DNA from: Escherichia coli O157:H7 str. 2011EL-2287
GTDB taxonomy: Bacteria; Pseudomonadota; Gammaproteobacteria; Enterobacterales; Enterobacteriaceae
Length of the DNA: 64,000 nucleotides
Assembly: GCA_000614405.2 (NCBI GenBank)
Contig: GCA_000614405.2_3612.1
Strand: one strand, 5' to 3'
Shown here in pieces: positions 9,501 through 59,516 of this stretch. The notes beneath the pieces are model-generated. The model made no database searches. It was not told the origin of the DNA and worked only from the letters and a program-made list of their open reading frames with translations. The stretch's first letter is position 1. Each line of letters opens with the position of its first letter. The position numbers were made by a program, and so were the translations under genes.

Positions 9501-12202
9501 ACGCTGTTGACCCATACATAAATTTCGCAGCTTTGCATGCGAATATGGATGGTGCAAGGTATCCGTTCGACGTTCCAGTTGCCAATGGGTACAAACGTGT
9601 TGTGATGATCATTAAGTGCGACCTGATAGGTAAACAAGTTCTTGCAGAAAACGGGACATCCACACATCCTTTTGAGATCGCTCTGCACTATCAGTTTGCT
9701 GACTCACCTTTTGCAGGGGATAAGAGAATATCTGATACAGACGCACAGCGTTGTAAGAAAGTATTGTTGGGTGCAGGTTGGTGGTGGTATGAGTTTGATT
9801 TAACAGATAAGTTCACAGATGATACCAAGACTCTCACAGGTATCCGTCTGGATCTTGGTGAGAACATGCACAAAGCTGTTTGTGATGGCACCTACGGTGA
9901 TCCTACAGTATACTTGAAGTATGTCTCTCTTGAGCATCCAGAGGATGCCGTAATCGGTCCTAAACTGAAATTATTCGGCGCATGGATTGCCAAGGATAGA
10001 GTAGGTATGGGTAAGAAAGTGAGAGGATTCCTGATAGATGCAGGAACAGAGGACATGCTGGTTAATGCAGTGTGGCCTACGCTAGAAGGAACTGCCTACA
10101 ACAATGCAGCCAGGTCTATAAATTGGTTCAACATTCACAGAGCTATGTGGACTACCAACTGCTACTTGTGGAGAGAGCTCAACGATCAGGCCTTTGGCTT
10201 TAGTAACGGCAGAAGGATGGCGATCATCTGCTGGACAACACTGCAAAGATGTTATGACCATGACTACGAGATTGGCGGTAGAGCATGGAAAGATATCCGA
10301 GATAGAATCATATACAATTTTGCAGATGATAATGGTGGCGGGGCATATAACTTTGGCACAAGCCGACTTATCCACTTGAACGGATCTTCAGCCTACAAGA
10401 AAGAAGGTTACTCTGGATCCATGATCGAGTGGGGTCTGGTGAAAGATGCTCGCGTATTGATGGGCCAGCAACTTGCTGCCGCAATAGGTCCCAGCGCAGT
10501 GCAGTCGGTTAAACCAGCGTGGTTTGATATTCCATTGTGGTCACCCGGAACACCGGGAACTGCTGCAATCAACCCTACCACTGGGGATCTAGAAATCTCC
10601 TGGGAGGACTTGAAGCAGGTCGGCGGTTGGGACAAAACAGGGTATCAGGTTCAGTGGTGGAGAGCTGATGGATCTTTAGCTGCTGATGAGTTTGTTAAGG
10701 ACAATTTCTACACTATGTCCTCTGCAAAAGCACAGCAATTATTTGGTCAGGCCACTCCGTCAACAATCACCATGTCTATGTGCTGTAAAGACAACAGGAC
10801 TGGAGCTTTGGGGCCAAGGGTTGCTAAGGTTTTCTCAGGTATTAAATGGAATCTTCCTGTTCAAAGTGTTTCATGGAAGCAAATAGGTGATAACAAGCTG
10901 CTGGTTACCCCTGCCTGTCAGTTCAACGCAACTCTTAACGTTAATCCTGCTGTTGCGGCAAACTCAGCTAAAGCTTCTGACTTCTCTGTGTCTAACACCG
11001 CTATGGCAGATGTGAGGAAGATTGACACACTGAACGCCAGAATTACCTGTAAAAACACTTATGGCACATTCCAGATCATCAACAACTTCACAGATGCTGA
11101 TTCTAAGGTAGTGAGGACAGCAAGCCAGACTTTGAGTTTAGGAACTCTGGCCTATGCGGCCCTGATCACTGAACAGTCGGCAACACTCCAAGGAGGTGGT
11201 GTAGGCAAGTCCATTACAACACCTGTGTGGAAGCCAAATGAGTGGGTTGTGTTTGATTTGACTGTGGACTTCTCCAGCGATAATAACTGGACATGGGTAA
11301 GGAATTGTTTGTCACAGTTGATGGGCGGTCCAAGCTCCGTTAGTGATAGTCACGACTCTACTGACCCGAGTGTGTTCCAGGTAGGTAAAACTCACCCAGA
11401 GACTGGAGAAACGTTGCCTGACAGGAAGTATGCTTTGGTTTGCATCTCTTACGGAAAAGCAGATGTCACCTTCTCAGGGACACACACTTATAACGGAACT
11501 TACAACTTCTCAAGGAAGTATAGTCTCAAAGCAGGGAACATTATAGACGAGGTTGGTGTGCTGTATAATCCGGGCAACGGCATAGGGATTGTTGGTGGTA
11601 AACTGCAGATGCAGGAACCTTCTATTACCCCTTCCAACGTAGCCGGGATTAGAAAGACTTGGGAAAGTAGTAATACCAACATTGCAACAGTGGATGCCAC
11701 CACAGGACTGGTAACATTTAAAGCTACTGGGAATGTCACCATAAAGTTTGTAGTTACTGATGATGCAGGGCGCAAAACGTCTTCAACATCTTTTACTGTC
11801 AAACAGATGGCACCACAGTGGAGAATGTGGATAGGTACAGCAACAAACGGGGCATACCCTAATCCGGCAGGTACTTCTGGTATGAAGACTTTCTCTACAA
11901 GCAAACCGATGGAGTACGGCAGCGGTCCTAAGGTAGGGCAGATGGTGTACTTTGGTGCGTATATTCCTGAAATTATAGGGCTTCCGAGAAGTCAGCTTCA
12001 GTTGCTGTTTGGGGCTGGTGTTGACGATCTTGCCACTTTCGGGTATAGCGACAACATCGAGGCTGCAAGGAGTTCAGGATGGGTAGGGTTCAGAATGGAG
12101 CCTGGAAAGGAAGGCAGGATTCTAGGGACAGCCTCTATAGGTGTTATGTTCCCTGGTGACCAGCAGTATCGTCTAGAAGCCTACGCAACCTTTTCTCGTT
12201 AA
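6566..12202 (+). CDS. giant virion/tail-associated protein with Ig-like (Big_2-type) domain
   Basis: 1878-aa ORF; Ig-like segment (TWESSNTNIATVDATTGLVTFKATGNVTIKFVVTDDAG); N-terminal Gly-rich repeats; last gene of late operon. Confidence 0.55.
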   Translation: MLPIPLLKLGRHFLDKRGGIKELAVLSYPIDNSDGTSNTVSYVNSLAILFDDGQLNITGYNRFGECRTGDLDTINYPNEAAWNVDHVWRADRAFVIRTFDNKFFYIGCTAGLIGSEAAGGNDVCVREWTPLPEQIVTGLHLDTHPERLVEVMGGVNNTVWVIAAPEADGMLHLYGSGNNTYGSLHVDKSQHATPVKIGETSESPETGPWKNPRINCEVHDNSVIFGGPNGFWIAGYDFLRNNSKNTLVYPAEHVTLDQFKGIPVGETWKGFMCGPNGAIIATERMHKPDDQQLVNVFYGQDVWGDDTWRSLNITYTHEVIMARGYGTSGIFFNNGTKQYRGFSRNLCNDIGAQSANNSPRANFIHYRALATAKFVEQTEPVSWTESVYFQGIHREGFLGTFCVVNGKLWWSGIPRGSFSGSNNLFGGRLNSQGFTEIPENWYKNVPVDSWGIEDIFDVNGVSNVSNIYIGDTVKMKLKPQPEGATFIIDKIELVNAAGTVVTDANYQFSTNWNHGGANEVVVTQYNRNINRRGLYSIKITYHDKHGTGRTYTTRTLNWNTIVPAYPSNGKWHTVGRNKQFHVNDTVYFGLNGTQPAVEGDTSYMVRLHRMDAGSVTYDVTQEIYDQRRATYDNIVKTQALWEFNPNGKGGKMLQVNEQNGTSLTVHEHPDPWPDPGKPHPGARTLKIVSHDAGYFGIRWEATVRYVDGTTNNIGITLGGTSEDNSLKIAYTPRGISIDNMDVVRNGYGDVNVKVTLGEHLGGERIIMYAFDHDPRTNGTYANQAWSYLINAPEPNTKEFYYGMKRDVCKKTGTHDWIAICVKDERTAWDEPVNRWFIGIPTRSDKYVAEYIVCMGGTNLNMCWNEDVNKYSDYDYMRDYSCNLWFNQTTGYPPRQARVNPAIFTDTQVFLTKQANEVQTFKNNYDPNKWFYNCYGAYFWGPAELPDSGSCFEAATYGSDYIMGQVKKYKMIPGPETLGNAVDPYINFAALHANMDGARYPFDVPVANGYKRVVMIIKCDLIGKQVLAENGTSTHPFEIALHYQFADSPFAGDKRISDTDAQRCKKVLLGAGWWWYEFDLTDKFTDDTKTLTGIRLDLGENMHKAVCDGTYGDPTVYLKYVSLEHPEDAVIGPKLKLFGAWIAKDRVGMGKKVRGFLIDAGTEDMLVNAVWPTLEGTAYNNAARSINWFNIHRAMWTTNCYLWRELNDQAFGFSNGRRMAIICWTTLQRCYDHDYEIGGRAWKDIRDRIIYNFADDNGGGAYNFGTSRLIHLNGSSAYKKEGYSGSMIEWGLVKDARVLMGQQLAAAIGPSAVQSVKPAWFDIPLWSPGTPGTAAINPTTGDLEISWEDLKQVGGWDKTGYQVQWWRADGSLAADEFVKDNFYTMSSAKAQQLFGQATPSTITMSMCCKDNRTGALGPRVAKVFSGIKWNLPVQSVSWKQIGDNKLLVTPACQFNATLNVNPAVAANSAKASDFSVSNTAMADVRKIDTLNARITCKNTYGTFQIINNFTDADSKVVRTASQTLSLGTLAYAALITEQSATLQGGGVGKSITTPVWKPNEWVVFDLTVDFSSDNNWTWVRNCLSQLMGGPSSVSDSHDSTDPSVFQVGKTHPETGETLPDRKYALVCISYGKADVTFSGTHTYNGTYNFSRKYSLKAGNIIDEVGVLYNPGNGIGIVGGKLQMQEPSITPSNVAGIRKTWESSNTNIATVDATTGLVTFKATGNVTIKFVVTDDAGRKTSSTSFTVKQMAPQWRMWIGTATNGAYPNPAGTSGMKTFSTSKPMEYGSGPKVGQMVYFGAYIPEIIGLPRSQLQLLFGAGVDDLATFGYSDNIEAARSSGWVGFRMEPGKEGRILGTASIGVMFPGDQQYRLEAYATFSR

Positions 12203-39376: not shown

Positions 39377-39668
39377 AAACATCACCCCCGCAGGGTTCTT
39401 AAAAGTATACCGTGAACTGCTATACACTACAGAGGACAGTATTCTAGAGTATCCAGAGTATCTTTTGCTGTATAAGTATCTGCAGGAGGCTGGTGAAAAT
39501 CTGCCAGTTAGTGCAGAAGGTGGTCCGAACTGGATATACAGCGCATGGAGAAAGGTTGACATTCTCCCAGACCCAGGTAAAGATATGGTAGTTTGGCAGC
39601 TTATCAACAACATCGGGATTCCAATCTTTGATGAAGCTGTTAAAATCTATTTTGAACTTGACGATTAA
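39366..39668 (+). CDS. hypothetical protein
   Basis: ATG after GGAGAGG RBS (ORF track start 39348). Confidence 0.4.
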   Translation: MKTENITPAGFLKVYRELLYTTEDSILEYPEYLLLYKYLQEAGENLPVSAEGGPNWIYSAWRKVDILPDPGKDMVVWQLINNIGIPIFDEAVKIYFELDD

Positions 39669-39685
39669 TATCAGGAGACCTTAAG

Positions 39686-39931
39686 ATGGCTGAAGTAGTT
39701 GCTCGCGCAGGACAGAAAGTACGTTGTGTGGAAGTAGGTTTTGGTGGCAAAGGGTGTCAAAACTTGACTCAAGGTAAGGAATACGCTGTTATTTCTGGTG
39801 GTGGCGACGAGAGTATTGTGTTCGAGGGCCACATCCTGGATGCTGAAAACTTTGAAATCTTTGACGACGATGGAGATCCGATCACCTGCCTGCTGGACGG
39901 GAATTGGGGAACTTTCGAAGTGATTGGCTAA
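39686..39931 (+). CDS. small paralog-family protein
   Basis: GKEYAVIS...FDDDGDPITC pattern; RBS AGGAGA. Confidence 0.4.
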   Translation: MAEVVARAGQKVRCVEVGFGGKGCQNLTQGKEYAVISGGGDESIVFEGHILDAENFEIFDDDGDPITCLLDGNWGTFEVIG

Positions 39932-55373: not shown

Positions 55374-55637
55374 ATGAAACGTCTGGATCAGCTTAAACTA
55401 GTTCAGTACATGGCCTACAAAGTTCTTGAAGTCCAAAAAGGTAGCAAAAAAGAGGTTTGCGAGAAAGCTTATAAGATCTTTACCCGCAAAAAAGATGACT
55501 GGATGCTACGCCAGACCAAAAAGGCTGACATCTTGGGGTACCTGGAAGAAGAGATCCGCCTTGAAGAGCAAGAAGAGATCCGCCGCAGTGAAGCAGATTA
55601 TCAGGCAGCCTGGGAAAACTGGATGAATAACAAATAA
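55374..55637 (+). CDS. hypothetical protein
   Basis: RBS AAAGAGGAAA. Confidence 0.45.
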   Translation: MKRLDQLKLVQYMAYKVLEVQKGSKKEVCEKAYKIFTRKKDDWMLRQTKKADILGYLEEEIRLEEQEEIRRSEADYQAAWENWMNNK

Positions 55638-55704
55638 TACAACAAGTTACATGGTCAGGGGGGCAATAAAGCCCCTTGATCACATAAAAATTATGCTATC
55701 CTTA

Positions 55705-55733
55705 TTGACAAGGATCGGCAGTTTTGCTATATT
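55705..55733 (+). promoter_or_regulatory. sigma70-like promoter
   Basis: TTGACA-N17-TATATT upstream of 55783 gene. Confidence 0.5.
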
Positions 55734-55782
55734 CTTTTTTAAAGGGAAGTTGTAAGAAAATTAACTAAGAGGTAAAAACACC

Positions 55783-56202
55783 ATGAACATTAAATCTAAT
55801 AATCCGGCATATAGCTTTGATAACGCTTTTTGTCACGGTCCGGCGGCGAAAGGATTCGAAATCGATGGTAAACTAATTATTGTCAATGTTGACGGGGAAG
55901 AGGTTGCAGTATATCCGGTGGCAGACGTAAAAAGCCGTTTACAATGCCGCATTGATGTTACCGCCTATCAGCTTGATCCGGTCCGCATAGTTGCCCTGGT
56001 CCTGGAAGAAGAAATTAAAGCCATGCACCATAGCAACAGGTTTATTGGTGACGCTCAGGATAATATGAAGGTGTGCCGCCATAAAGTTAATGAAGTGCTT
56101 AAAGAGTACGGCTATAAAGATCTTATGATCAAACGTGATGAAAAATTCCGGTACCGTAACGACCTGGCAAATCGGATTTTTGAAATATACGAATCATTAT
56201 AA
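55783..56202 (+). CDS. hypothetical protein
   Basis: RBS AAGAGG; last gene before non-coding region. Confidence 0.5.
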   Translation: MNIKSNNPAYSFDNAFCHGPAAKGFEIDGKLIIVNVDGEEVAVYPVADVKSRLQCRIDVTAYQLDPVRIVALVLEEEIKAMHHSNRFIGDAQDNMKVCRHKVNEVLKEYGYKDLMIKRDEKFRYRNDLANRIFEIYESL

Positions 56203-56220
56203 TTTTTTAACTGAATTATC

Positions 56221-56246
56221 AAGGGGCTTAGGCCCCTTTCTTTTTG
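56221..56246 (+). terminator. rho-independent terminator
   Basis: Hairpin AAGGGGC-TTAG-GCCCCTT + TCTTTTTG. Confidence 0.6.
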
Positions 56247-56854
56247 TCTGATCTTCCCCCTACCATAAACGGCCCTACCTGGCAAGTGGAATAATTGACG
56301 AGCCATCAACCCCACACACTGTACAAATATACATGGAAAATAACTATTGCATAATTTTTCATTGTGTGGTAGCAAGTCCATTTTTACCCGTTTTCTCTCC
56401 CAAAAGTGCACGTAATGCCGCTATTGCACAAATTTTAACCTGATGCACATCTCCAATATCTTGTCAACAACTAAAAATCTTTATAAGTCATACACTTACA
56501 CAGCATCGAAAGCGTGTTCTACGCGAAAAATCGAGTATAACTATAGCCGCCAGATCTCAGAATTCACGTACGCACGCCATTCTATAGCCTGCAAAGTATT
56601 TATTCCAACCACAGAATAACGGAATAGTCAATACCTGCATAAAATAATTATTCGTGTAAACTGCATAACATAAATCAGCTCAGGTGTCAACATTTTTCGT
56701 AAACAGTCCGAAATTATCACGATGAGTTATCATAAACAGAGAAATCTTTAGTCGTCTAATGTTTACTGTACATTACTATATTGACTGGAATCATTAGATG
56801 ACTAATAGAAAGATAAGAAATAATTAACAATACAATTATTTTATCTGTAACAAT

Positions 56855-57052
56855 AAGGCAACTATGCAAACGAATGGCATGGCGCGACGGAGTCGCGACA
56901 TAATATAAAAGCAGTAACCATCACCCCCGTGATAGTTTGTCTGCAATCTATTAATCAGATCATAGTTGCCTTGTATTTAGTTAATCATGACATAACAAGC
57001 AAGGCAACTATAGATCTGCTAATAGTTGCCCTGCTTTTATATTATGTCATAG
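56855..57052. repeat. nested palindromes / inverted iterons (AGGCAACTAT x4 alternating; 18-bp inverted repeat)
   Basis: AGGCAACTAT at 56856 and 57002, inverse at 56962 and 57023; GACATAATATAAAAGCAG (56893) inverted at 57031; GCAAACGAATGGCATGGC repeated at 56865 and 57127. Confidence 0.5.
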
Positions 57053-57157
57053 AAACACCCGAAGGGGTGACCAAAGGTCACCTGGCATAGCCAGTGAAAT
57101 ATTGTAAACAAGTTAATTATTGTCATGCAAACGAATGGCATGGCTTATCATCTCTGT

Positions 57158-57289
57158 GTAAACAGTTTGTTTGTAAACAGTTTATACGTGAACAGTTAAC
57201 TATGTAAACTATTGAGAATGTAAACAGTAAAGGAAGTGAATAGTAAGCGAGTGAATATTAATAGCGTGAATAGTGACAGCGTAAACAGT
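57158..57289 (+). repeat. iteron array: nine 9-bp direct repeats GT(A/G)AA(C/T)A(G/T)T at ~15-bp periodicity
   Basis: Copies start at 57158, 57173, 57188, 57205, 57220, 57236, 57251, 57266, 57281; non-coding context. Confidence 0.6.
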
Positions 57290-57873
57290 CAGGCATGTCA
57301 ATTAAGTCTAAAGTGTCAAAGGTGTCATATTATGTCACCATTATGTCAGACAAGTTTTTCTCCTCTTTGTCAAGTGCTGCATGAAAATTTACAATCTGGT
57401 ATGGTAGCATTTTTGCGGCCCTGTTTACATTCAGTTGTGTATGTATAAGCCTTGTTGTGTGGGCGTTTAGACGTCTAGACGGTTGGAAGTCTACAGGTCA
57501 ATATCTAATCTATTGGTTGCTAACTATATCCCACACAAATAGTAAGAAATATAATTGTTATGTGTGTAAACTGTAACTCATGTTATCAATCCCTGTATGG
57601 ATCGCCAGTGGTGCGCATAATGGGTATTATGTTAAATTGCCCGTAATGATAACAGTTCTCACAATGATAGGTATTCTCATTCACCCCACAAGATAGGTTG
57701 CAAATGTTGTGCCACTGTGTGAACGGCCTCACCTATTAATTTGCCTCACTGCCTCGATATTTGAGAATTATTATAAGAATGAGAAGTATTCCCATTCCGT
57801 CCGCCTGGCAGCACTCCTGTCGGTCAGGTCAAAATCGTGGTAGAATTGGGCCTATTCAGATATTTCTGGCTGA

Positions 57874-58068
57874 CTCTTCAGGTCTGTGTGGGAAAAGCCA
57901 ACCTCTCCGGCGGGGCAGGGGGAGGTCAATTAAAAAATTTACGTGGTGTATGAAGCGCTCTTCAGGTAAGGCAGGTATTATGGGATGAAACCCTCTTCAG
58001 GCAATGATATTTGTGGGTGTGATATTTGCTGGAAAGCCAGATATGACGGGACTCCCGGCGGGGCAGGG
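57874..58068 (+). repeat. direct repeats (CTCTTCAGG x3; CCGGCGGGGCAGGG x2)
   Basis: CTCTTCAGG at 57874, 57958, 57993; CCGGCGGGGCAGGG at 57907 and 58055. Confidence 0.4.
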
Positions 58069-58765
58069 GTAGTACAGACAGGGAAAATATGGGGATGTAG
58101 TTGGGTGAATTGATCGGGCAGGTAGAGTATGGAATATGTTACAAGTATGTTAAATATGGAGGTTGAATATCTGTAGGATTTGTGTGTAAAATCAAAGACT
58201 TAAGGGGTGTTGTGGTATTTTCTATAAATAATTCAAGTTTAATAGGCAATATTTGTCTCTATCCGCTTTGTGTGGTAAACAGATTCAGATTAGATTGGTT
58301 TACAAGTGTATACATAATATACAAATTAAAGATACAAGAAACCCCCCTCCCCCCTTCGGCTACCATTCACCTTTTCCTCTGACTGGTACTTAAACACTTA
58401 TTCAGACTCTTCAGGTTATCACCCATATATCATATGGCAGTGACTGGTGTCCTCCGGCCCCTCTTTCGTCACCCGTCCGCTTCGCCATGCTAATGCCATA
58501 GCTAATGGTTCGGTTGTTCACCCTGTTCACTCAGGTGTATCTCTATACCCCTTCAAACCGAAGAGAACAGAAAACCCGAATTACTCGGTAAAAGAAAAGA
58601 GAAGAACTTAATTTTATCAGGATAGGCAAGAATGTCAAGGCATGACTGCTCACTAAACAAGCAAACAGTCATGTGTGGGAGGTAAGTGATTGTGGTGGTA
58701 GGAAATTTAGTTGAAAGATGTGTTATAGGTGCTTCCAGCACTTTAGCCGGGCAGCTAATTGTGTG

Positions 58766-58981
58766 TCAGTCCAGCGGTTCATCCTCTACTTCACTGAAAT
58801 CAATGTTCATGGTCTCTTCCCAACCATCGATCTCAGCACAAGAGTGGAGTTCTTTAGGGTTTACTCCCAAAGCCTCAGCAACAGAGTCTATATTTAACAC
58901 CTCTGGCAGGTATGATTCATCGAATTCAAGGTAAATCAGGCCACGAGTGTTGTCAGCTCCACCAAATATTTCTATCTTCAT
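58766..58981 (-). CDS. small acidic protein
   Basis: ORF at 3' end of leftward cluster; Glu/Asp-rich. Confidence 0.4.
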   Translation of the reverse strand: MKIEIFGGADNTRGLIYLEFDESYLPEVLNIDSVAEALGVNPKELHSCAEIDGWEETMNIDFSEVEDEPLD

Positions 58982-59102
58982 AAAATCTCCTCTGGGAATG
59001 AAAGTGTGAACAGGGTTTTATACGTTCTAATGCACAGGAATTATACACGTTTGCCTCTTCAGGCCATGCTTTAGCATGAGGAACCTGTGTGGGCTCGGTG
59101 CT

Positions 59103-59516
59103 TCATAGTCTACCACCTCTGAACTCTTCGTGCTCAGGCATAATAGAGAACCAGATATCTACGATGTCCTCCCACGTCAGGTCATCAGCCTCAGGATCTG
59201 TCTGGGACGAAGATGAAGAGTCCTCAGAATCTAAGTTTTCCTCTTTAACTGGCTCATCCAAGGGACATATGGTCACTCCTTCGGATGTCTCTTCAGATGC
59301 ATGTGTGTTGATCATGTTCCACCCGTGAGTATTCCGGCAACAGCCGCTATGGAAGTAATGATCATCAGGATCACCACTAAAACTTCGGACAATGTTCTCA
59401 TTGTGTATTCCATATTCTCCAAATGATGTGTGGATATTATCACTGGAGCGGCAATGTGTCAACAGAAACGCCGCGAGGGTTTGGTTAAAATCCGAGCGTA
59501 TGGTGATTTGGGTCAA
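59103..59516 (-). CDS. hypothetical acidic protein (start uncertain)
   Basis: ORF with Ser/Asp/Glu-rich C-terminal half; alternative internal start near 59315. Confidence 0.3.
   Translation of the reverse strand: MTQITIRSDFNQTLAAFLLTHCRSSDNIHTSFGEYGIHNENIVRSFSGDPDDHYFHSGCCRNTHGWNMINTHASEETSEGVTICPLDEPVKEENLDSEDSSSSSQTDPEADDLTWEDIVDIWFSIMPEHEEFRGGRL

Follow-up and report, generated by a model that had tools for sequence, protein, structure and literature searches.

What is the function of a conserved gap of some 2.5 kb, devoid of genes, at the point where two operons of a phage genome converge? We addressed this question for positions 56203-58765 of a 64,000-nucleotide stretch of DNA (hereafter the window) from the assembly of Escherichia coli O157:H7 str. 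2011EL-2287 (GCA_000614405.2, contig GCA_000614405.2_3612.1), a stretch which, judged by its sequence, belongs to an rV5-like myophage (Vequintavirus). A first-pass annotation, made from the letters alone, had drawn attention to palindromes and a periodic repeat array in the gap and had proposed a replication origin, a packaging (pac) site or a genome terminus. The terminus is borne out, since the repeats and record ends of related phages map to 57349 and 57805; the pac reading is plausible. The region is probably the concatemer-junction region of Vequintavirus, with a short direct terminal repeat (DTR) whose formation we propose to involve nicking and fill-in, and with accessory elements on its flanks. 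A short-DTR concatemer junction is an already known kind of element. In Vequintavirus, a DTR has been recorded in a few GenBank entries and one announcement, and we found no account of its anatomy.

A megablast search with 56200-58800 matched 122 phage records, essentially all of them rV5-like E. coli myophages; in 99 of these the match spanned 80% of the query or more, and about 120 records preserve the gap. Because a boundary-pattern scan of IMG/VR gave only 2 loci, relatives were drawn from GenBank phage records, and a MAFFT alignment of 21 Vequintavirus genomes is the basis of the conservation and copy-number counts given here. The location of the genome ends came from the records of these relatives. 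The Gotham record carries an annotated repeat_region at 1-459 and 136567-137025, the two copies being identical, which maps onto window 57805..57349 with 95% identity. YN3 has an exact 458-bp repeat at both record ends. The Pr121LW record opens with GACAAGTTTT (GACAAG) and closes with ...TATGTCA, and four bov records (bov10K2 and its sister records) open at the other boundary. In all, the first or last nucleotide of seven records, deposited by four groups, falls on one of two positions, which correspond to window 57349 and 57805. Since the record ends of independently deposited relatives coincide, we infer that 57349-57805 is the virion DTR. In the window, the left boundary reads ...TTATGTCA^GACAAGTTTTTC... 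(57348/57349) and the right one ...CCGTCCGCC^TGGCAGCAC... (57805/57806), the caret marking the boundary. The segment between them is 95-99% identical to the repeats of the relatives, and 92-98% identity is found across the 21 aligned genomes. By homology, 57349-57805 can thus be taken as a short DTR that would occur once per junction in concatemers and at both ends of the packaged DNA. The I29 assembly (ON286975) holds the DTR segment twice in tandem, an artefact expected when both end copies get joined.

Sequencing data reported for relatives agree with fixed ends. For Gotham, a twofold coverage over the repeat and one specific start were reported, and in the Mydovirus KPP-1 a 514-bp DTR was located from coverage and PhageTerm (PMC9862379). 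Two further Mydovirus records, DP and KP12, open exactly at the KPP-1 DTR boundaries. Fixed, non-permuted ends are therefore found in the Vequintavirus relatives and likewise in Mydovirus KPP-1, DP and KP12, and an identical sequence of a few hundred base pairs stands at both ends of Gotham and YN3.

The boundaries themselves share a motif. The left one is TGTCA^GAC on the top strand and the right one TGCCA^GGC on the bottom strand, i.e. inverted copies of TGYYA^. This pair is present in 20 of the 21 genomes, the remaining one, rV5, having a single A-to-T change (TGCCT). In KPP-1 the boundaries read TGCTA^GAC and TGCTA^AAC, and in the Seunavirus GEC_vB_MG they read TGCTA^GAC and TGCTA^AAA. Among random site pairs drawn from the window, a boundary match as good as the observed one occurs with a frequency of 6e-4. 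When Mydovirus and Seunavirus are aligned, homology sets in about 7 nt ahead of one cut and ceases about 9 nt beyond the other; what is conserved is therefore the DTR together with its two inverted pentamers.

A scheme for the formation of the ends can be drawn from this arrangement. Repeats of the T7 type must be duplicated before packaging, and nicking followed by synthesis is the classical way of doing so (PMC4281155). In the present case, a packaging nuclease would nick just 3' of TGYYA; the nick of the left boundary (TGTCA^GAC) would fall in the top strand and that of the right boundary (TGCCA^GGC) in the bottom strand. Such staggered nicks would leave 457-nt 5' overhangs, which the T7-like replisome of the phage would fill in so that each daughter molecule receives a full repeat. 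The window codes for a PIF1-like helicase, a DnaB-like helicase and a family-A DNA polymerase, and the rV5 homologue of the DnaB-like helicase is annotated as primase/helicase. The flanking elements, namely the helically phased TGTCA array, the GTRAAYNNT array, the GGCAACTAT palindromes with their hairpins and the CTCTTCAGG/G-rich repeats, would act as accessory cis-elements, attracting the machinery or setting its position and protecting the junction from the two operons that converge on it. They would be helpful yet individually dispensable, like the short-repeat arrays beside the T7 terminal repeat. In its most specific form the proposal is tentative, and we would sooner doubt than assert it: the DTR of the Vequintavirinae would be made by specific nicking at inverted TGYYA^ sites in at least three genera, in Vequintavirus the outer half-site would have multiplied into a phased TGTCA array to load the nuclease, and a conserved phage protein would bind GTAAACAG and the palindromes and thereby assemble a junction complex. 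If true, this would define the duplication of short DTRs in a large myovirus at the nucleotide level.

The gap does not appear to hide genes. As the first-pass annotation had stated, it lies between the 3' ends of convergent units and contains no credible ORF (open reading frame): none of at least 40 aa stays intact in all 21 aligned relatives, and no 3-nt (codon) periodicity of substitutions was seen in the alignment. Small ORFs annotated here by depositors are mutually inconsistent, and other depositors leave the gap empty. In the type phage rV5, the homologous stretch (104013-106618, in opposite orientation) has no annotated gene and likewise lies between convergent small genes. An Rfam scan of 55500-59500 gave no match at E ≤1, and a scan of the window for tRNA and tmRNA found none. 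The roughly 2 kb of flanking non-coding DNA is conserved as well as the neighbouring genes or better. The outer flanks are 88-100% conserved, and the hypervariable parts of the alignment are confined to 57050-57349 and a few tens of bp outside the right boundary. The spacer next to the left operon shows 88-98% identity, again with no intact conserved ORF. The GC content drops to 30-37% over 56600-56999, compared with about 44% in the window, and a k-mer analysis showed (T)GTAAAC to be enriched and scattered through the entire 2.5 kb. The features of the region are collected in the table.

Table. Features of the gap and its borders (positions in the window; ^ marks the DTR boundary; promoters, terminators and their energies are predictions).
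Feature	Position	Strand	Remarks
Left flanking gene	55783-56202	+	PHROG match, family of unknown function
ORF-free gap between convergent operons	56203-58765		Conserved in Vequintavirus
Non-coding spacer	56203..56847		Conserved; moderately AT-rich, scattered (T)GTAAAC (56655, 56699, 56758-)
Intrinsic terminator-like hairpin ending left operon	56221..56238	+	Stem then TCTTTTTGTC; dG -12.9 kcal/mol; predicted
Palindrome module	56848..57050		Four GGCAACTAT in alternating orientation, 18-nt inverted repeat, two hairpins
Segment between 20-nt direct repeats ATGCAAACGAATGGCATGGC	56864..57144	+	Repeats at 56864-56883 and 57125-57144, the FV3 deletion endpoints
Terminator-like hairpin	56937-56916	-	-16.6 kcal/mol, z -3.2 vs shuffles; predicted
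Terminator-like hairpin	56997-57036	+	-20.3 kcal/mol, z -4.3 vs shuffles; predicted
Variable cassette	57049..57099		Three small hairpins CACCCGAAGGGGTG, GGTGACCAAAGGTCACC, TGGCATAGCCA; z -3.2
Array of nine GTRAAYNNT repeats	57158..57289	+	15/16-bp period; 60-190 bp outside left DTR boundary
Five TGTCA motifs	57296..57348	+	Spacing ~9-18 bp; last copy is outer half of left cut site
Direct terminal repeat (inferred), 457 bp	57349..57805		Left TGTCA^GACAAG; right CCGTCCGCC^TGGCAG (bottom strand TGCCA^GGCGGAC)
Sigma-70-like promoter, TTGTCA-17-TACAAT	57367..57395	+	Just inside left DTR boundary, reading inward; 10/12 matches; predicted
Two copies of composite repeat CTCTTCAGG ... GGAAAGCC ... CCGGCGGGGCAGGGG	57874..58072	+	Outside right DTR boundary
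Very highly conserved block	58350..58700		Mostly 99-100% in 21 genomes, one 50-nt bin 94%; above adjacent genes
Strong invariant sigma-70-like promoter, TTGACA-16-TGaTAAAAT (extended -10)	58638-58611	-	Points toward DTR; predicted
Right flanking gene	58766-58981	-	PHROG match, family of unknown function

All the repeats and palindromes listed by the first-pass annotation are present, and at the places given except for one offset of 4 nt. Toward the left cut one meets, in turn, the palindrome module, the variable cassette, the conserved 20-mer ATGCAAACGAATGGCATGGC, the GTRAAYNNT array and a TGTCA-like array, with an invariant final TGTCA at the cut. The reported nine direct 9-mers proved to be eight strict copies of GT(A/G)AA(C/T)A(G/T)T and a ninth, variant copy, GTAAACTAT at 57204, with start-to-start spacings of 15, 15, 16, 16, 16, 15, 15 and 15 bp (TRF period 15). 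The degenerate 9-mer has 15 matches in the window where 5.9 are expected, a number equalled by 0 of 100 shuffles, and 10 of the 15 are inside the region, as are 7 of the 8 copies of GTAAACAG in the 64 kb. Among the 21 genomes, the copy number of GTRAAYNNT varies from 0 to 10, the period being always 15-16 bp. Because of this variation the array cannot be strictly required as an initiator or terminase site. The array singled out earlier as the key element is distinct from the terminus: its place is beyond the left DTR boundary, where it accompanies the terminus as an accessory. The cluster of TGTCA motifs noted earlier does adjoin the left cut directly. Relatives have about 2-9 TGTCA-like copies at a spacing of roughly 9-11 bp, and all 21 genomes share the copy at -5 unchanged. 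Given the TGYYA symmetry of the cut sites, the cluster is thus a run of copies of the cut site's outer half. In navn, which retains one GTRAAYNNT unit, a 50-bp insertion is found directly outside the right DTR boundary (right of the equivalent of window 57815).

The palindrome module contains GGCAACTAT at 56857 (+), 56962 (-), 57003 (+) and 57022 (-), in the alternating orientation originally described; three of the copies match the 10-mer AGGCAACTAT exactly, the other one being GGGCAACTAT. The 64 kb hold 6 copies of GGCAACTAT against 0.46 expected (0/100 shuffles), four of them within 175 bp. The 18-bp perfect inverted repeat is at 56897-56914 and 57031-57048, so that its existence stood and its reported start, 56893, was 4 nt off. 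It represents the common U-rich tail, CTGCTTTTATATTATGTC, of two terminator-like hairpins on opposite strands, the + strand member of which was likewise called a terminator by the annotators of Murica. The Murica annotation also places a terminator at the site homologous to the hairpin ending the left operon, and a GC-containing stem with a U-rich tract, the signature of a predicted terminator, is present in all three hairpins (56221-56238 and 56997-57036 on the + strand, 56937-56916 on the - strand). The fold of 56848-56985 has an energy of -41 kcal/mol (z -5), and the identity of the module across the 21 genomes is about 93-98% in 50-nt bins. The duplicated sequence seen in the first pass, the 20-nt ATGCAAACGAATGGCATGGC, occurs at 56864 and 57125. 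In phage FV3 (NC_019517.1) there is a clean 261-bp deletion between these two repeats, equivalent to window 56884-57144: the FV3 sequence passes from the first ATGCAAACGAATGGCATGGC copy directly into what follows the second. With it go the two terminator-like hairpins, the 18-nt inverted repeat and all but one of the four GGCAACTAT copies, and FV3 amounts to a natural knockout of the module. KPP-1 and GEC_vB_MG, whose sequence is unrelated here, have a module of 4-6 copies of a ~13-mer in alternating orientation, among them a perfect inverted repeat of 18-21 nt. The module is placed 300-550 bp beyond the homologous DTR boundary, and the arms of its palindromes are not U-rich tails. Although FV3 lives without the module, the conservation of its position across genera suggests a role at the DNA level, and terminator tails are probably not the whole account of the palindromes.

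The variable cassette that follows shows 41% gaps across the alignment, other relatives having TTAACTTGYTAATTGT-type repeats in its place. Its 51 nt are 90% identical to a non-coding stretch of circular E. coli 'plasmids' of 13.6-13.7 kb (NZ_CP035869.1, at 10647-10697; NZ_CP074841.1; NZ_CP020521.1), which code for a major capsid protein, a tape measure protein and a baseplate protein. The two versions of the middle hairpin are distinguished by a compensatory pair (GGTGACC/GGTCACC vs GGTGACT/AGTCACC). The cassette may represent a small cis element that is mobile or shared, and the capsid-encoding episome could be a satellite or miniature phage. Searches of E. coli genomes and plasmids returned only this 51-nt match and one Vequintavirus genome deposited as a plasmid.

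On the other side of the DTR, the composite unit (CTCTTCAGG plus a G-rich 14-mer) is found at 57874-57924 and 57993-58072, with further copies of CTCTTCAGG at 57958, 58407 and 59055. These account for the direct repeats of the first pass, CTCTTCAGG occurring four times in the region and CCGGCGGGGCAGGG twice (57907 and 58055). In the 64 kb there are 6 matches to CTCTTCAGG against 0.57 expected, five of them on the + strand between 57874 and 59063. KPP-1 and GEC_vB_MG have copies of CTTCAGG that match in both side and orientation. The copy at 59055-59063 (CCTGAAGAG on the gene strand) precedes the start of the minus-strand gene 58766-58981 by 74-82 nt, and CTCTTCAGG recurs after the last DTR-directed gene in Mydovirus and Seunavirus. 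CTCTTCAGG could be a phage-specific transcription or processing signal instead of a packaging element. Together with the GTAAACAGT array and the GGCAACTAT pairs, the CTCTTCAGG repeats are candidate protein-binding elements.

Two predicted promoters read toward or into the DTR. The block TTGTCAAG...AAATTTACAA of the inward promoter at the left boundary is conserved in KPP-1 and GEC_vB_MG. A weak hairpin with a U-tract stands 20 nt past the promoter in the highly conserved block on the right. No conserved sigma-70 counterpart of this promoter, aimed into the DTR, was found in the other genera, and a literature search for Vequintavirus transcriptomics returned nothing relevant. A structured RNA in 58320-58606 was considered and rejected, folds of either strand being no better than those of shuffles (z -1.2 and -0.2); the near identity of the sequences left no room for a covariation test. 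Inside the DTR, a palindrome, CGTTTAGACGTCTAGACG, at 57464-57481 (AGACGTCT then AGACGGTT) presumably resembles tandem MetJ boxes.

Several observations weigh against a junction with accessory elements. The ends of the window phage are deduced from relatives only, and the terminase genes fall outside the window. The ten neighbouring proteins have no informative Pfam domains, and no Rep, O or initiator domains; their PHROG matches are of unknown function, except for one transcriptional regulator 1.6 kb away, and the 'Rel homology' and 'FtsK' notes of depositors on neighbouring proteins were not reproduced. The symmetry of the nick sites depends on just 5-8 nt, and the T7 boundaries lack it. GTRAAYNNT is reduced to one copy in navn and FFH2 and to none in V18. 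With 0-10 array copies among the genomes and no palindrome module in FV3, neither element is strictly essential, i.e. indispensable for packaging. Finally, PhageTerm called one other Vequintavirus 'circular permutated' (PMC8407724) and another 'headful (PAC)' (PMC13211470).

These two calls are the main support for a headful pac site near the TGTCA cluster, in which case the genomes would be partly permuted and terminally redundant and the record ends would mark the first cut only. A resemblance can also be seen between clustered short repeats around a cut and the hexamer clusters of P1 pac. The coincident ends and the exact repeat argue against the permuted and headful calls: both ends are fixed, YN3 and Gotham have an identical repeat of 458/459 bp at either end, records from other laboratories open at either boundary, and the doubled coverage and single start of Gotham are matched in Mydovirus. 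Transposase libraries are known to blur termini. We regard headful packaging from this site as very improbable. A replication origin, which could coexist with a terminus, is also improbable, if not to the same degree. In that case a phage initiator would bind the GTRAAYNNT repeats as iterons, the DNA would unwind at the AT-rich 56600-56999, and the palindromes would provide auxiliary structure. Phased direct repeats do adjoin DNA of low GC content and palindromes, the conserved promoter at 58638-58611 could give a priming transcript, and the end regions of T7 bear promoters named phiOL and phiOR. The latter are associated with secondary origins, and the T7 end regions have origin activity. However, the 9-mers recur every 15-16 bp (~1.5 helical turns), unlike 17-22-bp iterons on one helical face; the array is not conserved, falling to 0-1 copies in viable isolates; no DnaA box with at most one mismatch is present in the region; no Rep-like or initiator gene is found among the ten neighbouring proteins; and converging genes are the layout expected at a terminus, not at a bidirectional origin. 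The rV5 genome paper described shifts in GC/AT skew at 104425-105475, and its authors ascribed them to transcription orientation (PMC3606486).

The region might also be mainly a zone of termination and insulation between convergent operons, the repeat arrays being neutral products of slippage. This would fit the terminator-like hairpins on both strands (those listed above and one at 57069-57056 on the - strand), the hypervariable copy number of the arrays and the deletion of the palindrome module in FV3. It would leave the fixed ends at 57349 and 57805 unexplained. Moreover, the period and core of the repeats are kept while their copy number drifts, (T)GTAAAC is enriched over the whole 2.5 kb, the CTTCAGG repeats and alternating palindromes hold their side and orientation in three genera, and about 2 kb of flanking non-coding DNA is as conserved as genes. 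This explanation is unlikely, though among the alternatives it is the one we would discount least. A partition or centromere function was dropped: the phage is lytic, there are no par genes nearby and the ends are fixed at the site.

The junction reading places the physical ends of a coliphage group widely used for therapy and biocontrol, and it resolves the conflicting published packaging calls in favour of fixed short DTRs. Because most deposited genomes leave the 2.5 kb unannotated or fill it with spurious small ORFs, the result should aid correct annotation. As for the records themselves, most of those for Vequintavirus, including rV5, were opened arbitrarily, the true ends being internal; about 19 'Campylobacter phage' records (MG0656xx, UNVERIFIED) are Vequintavirus genomes, and so is the E. 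coli 'plasmid' CP057073.1 (137.6 kb). For engineering and study, targets are offered by the cut sites at TGYYA^, by the half-site and GTRAAYNNT arrays and by the palindrome module, and the natural deletion variants FV3, V18 and navn are already available as controls. The symmetric TGYYA^ cut motif and these variants are the most useful new points, and they bear on how short terminal repeats get duplicated, a matter still argued for T7.

The nearest parallel within the subfamily is a homologous element in other Vequintavirinae, of 459 bp in Gotham, 514 bp in KPP-1 and DP and, by alignment, about 515 bp in GEC_vB_MG. It lies between convergent small-gene operons and has the same cut-site pentamers, alternating-repeat palindromes outside one boundary and CTTCAGG outside the other. 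The GTRAAYNNT and TGTCA arrays, in contrast, are specific to Vequintavirus, and KPP-1 has no comparable tandem array. Between genera, nucleotide similarity is limited to the DTR and a few flanking bases. Since a direct comparison of the window with KPP-1 gave only a 37-nt match, inside the DTR (E 0.002), their relation was established via the boundary motifs and the Mydovirus-Seunavirus alignment.

Further afield, the closest likeness is to T7. In the T7 record, a 160-bp terminal repeat (1-160) gives way to an array at 175-341 in which CCTAAAG recurs every 13 bp; the right terminal repeat is preceded by a matching array (39606-39744), and the promoters A0 (leftward), phiOL and phiOR are in the same zones as the arrays. 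Both phages thus have a short exact DTR with short direct repeats arrayed directly internal to its copies (13-bp period in T7, 15/16-bp here), promoters in the junction zone, one of them aimed at the end (compare 58638-58611), and a T7-type replisome (family-A polymerase, DnaB-like helicase). They differ in that the window phage is a myovirus of ~137 kb without a phage RNA polymerase, its non-coding zone is, at 2.5 kb, far larger, and its ends lie where genes converge. The two share no sequence similarity, the inverted TGYYA^ boundaries are not shared by T7, and the repeat motifs differ between the two sides here whereas T7 uses one motif on both. In lambda (cosB/cosQ), P1 (pac hexamers) and SPP1 (pacL/pacR), the cleavage point is flanked by short, roughly helically phased repeats, and the ends are cohesive or permuted headful ends. 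By analogy, the clustered repeats of Vequintavirus could load a small terminase or a DNA-bending accessory protein; unlike in those systems, both ends are fixed here, with a duplication of 457 bp.

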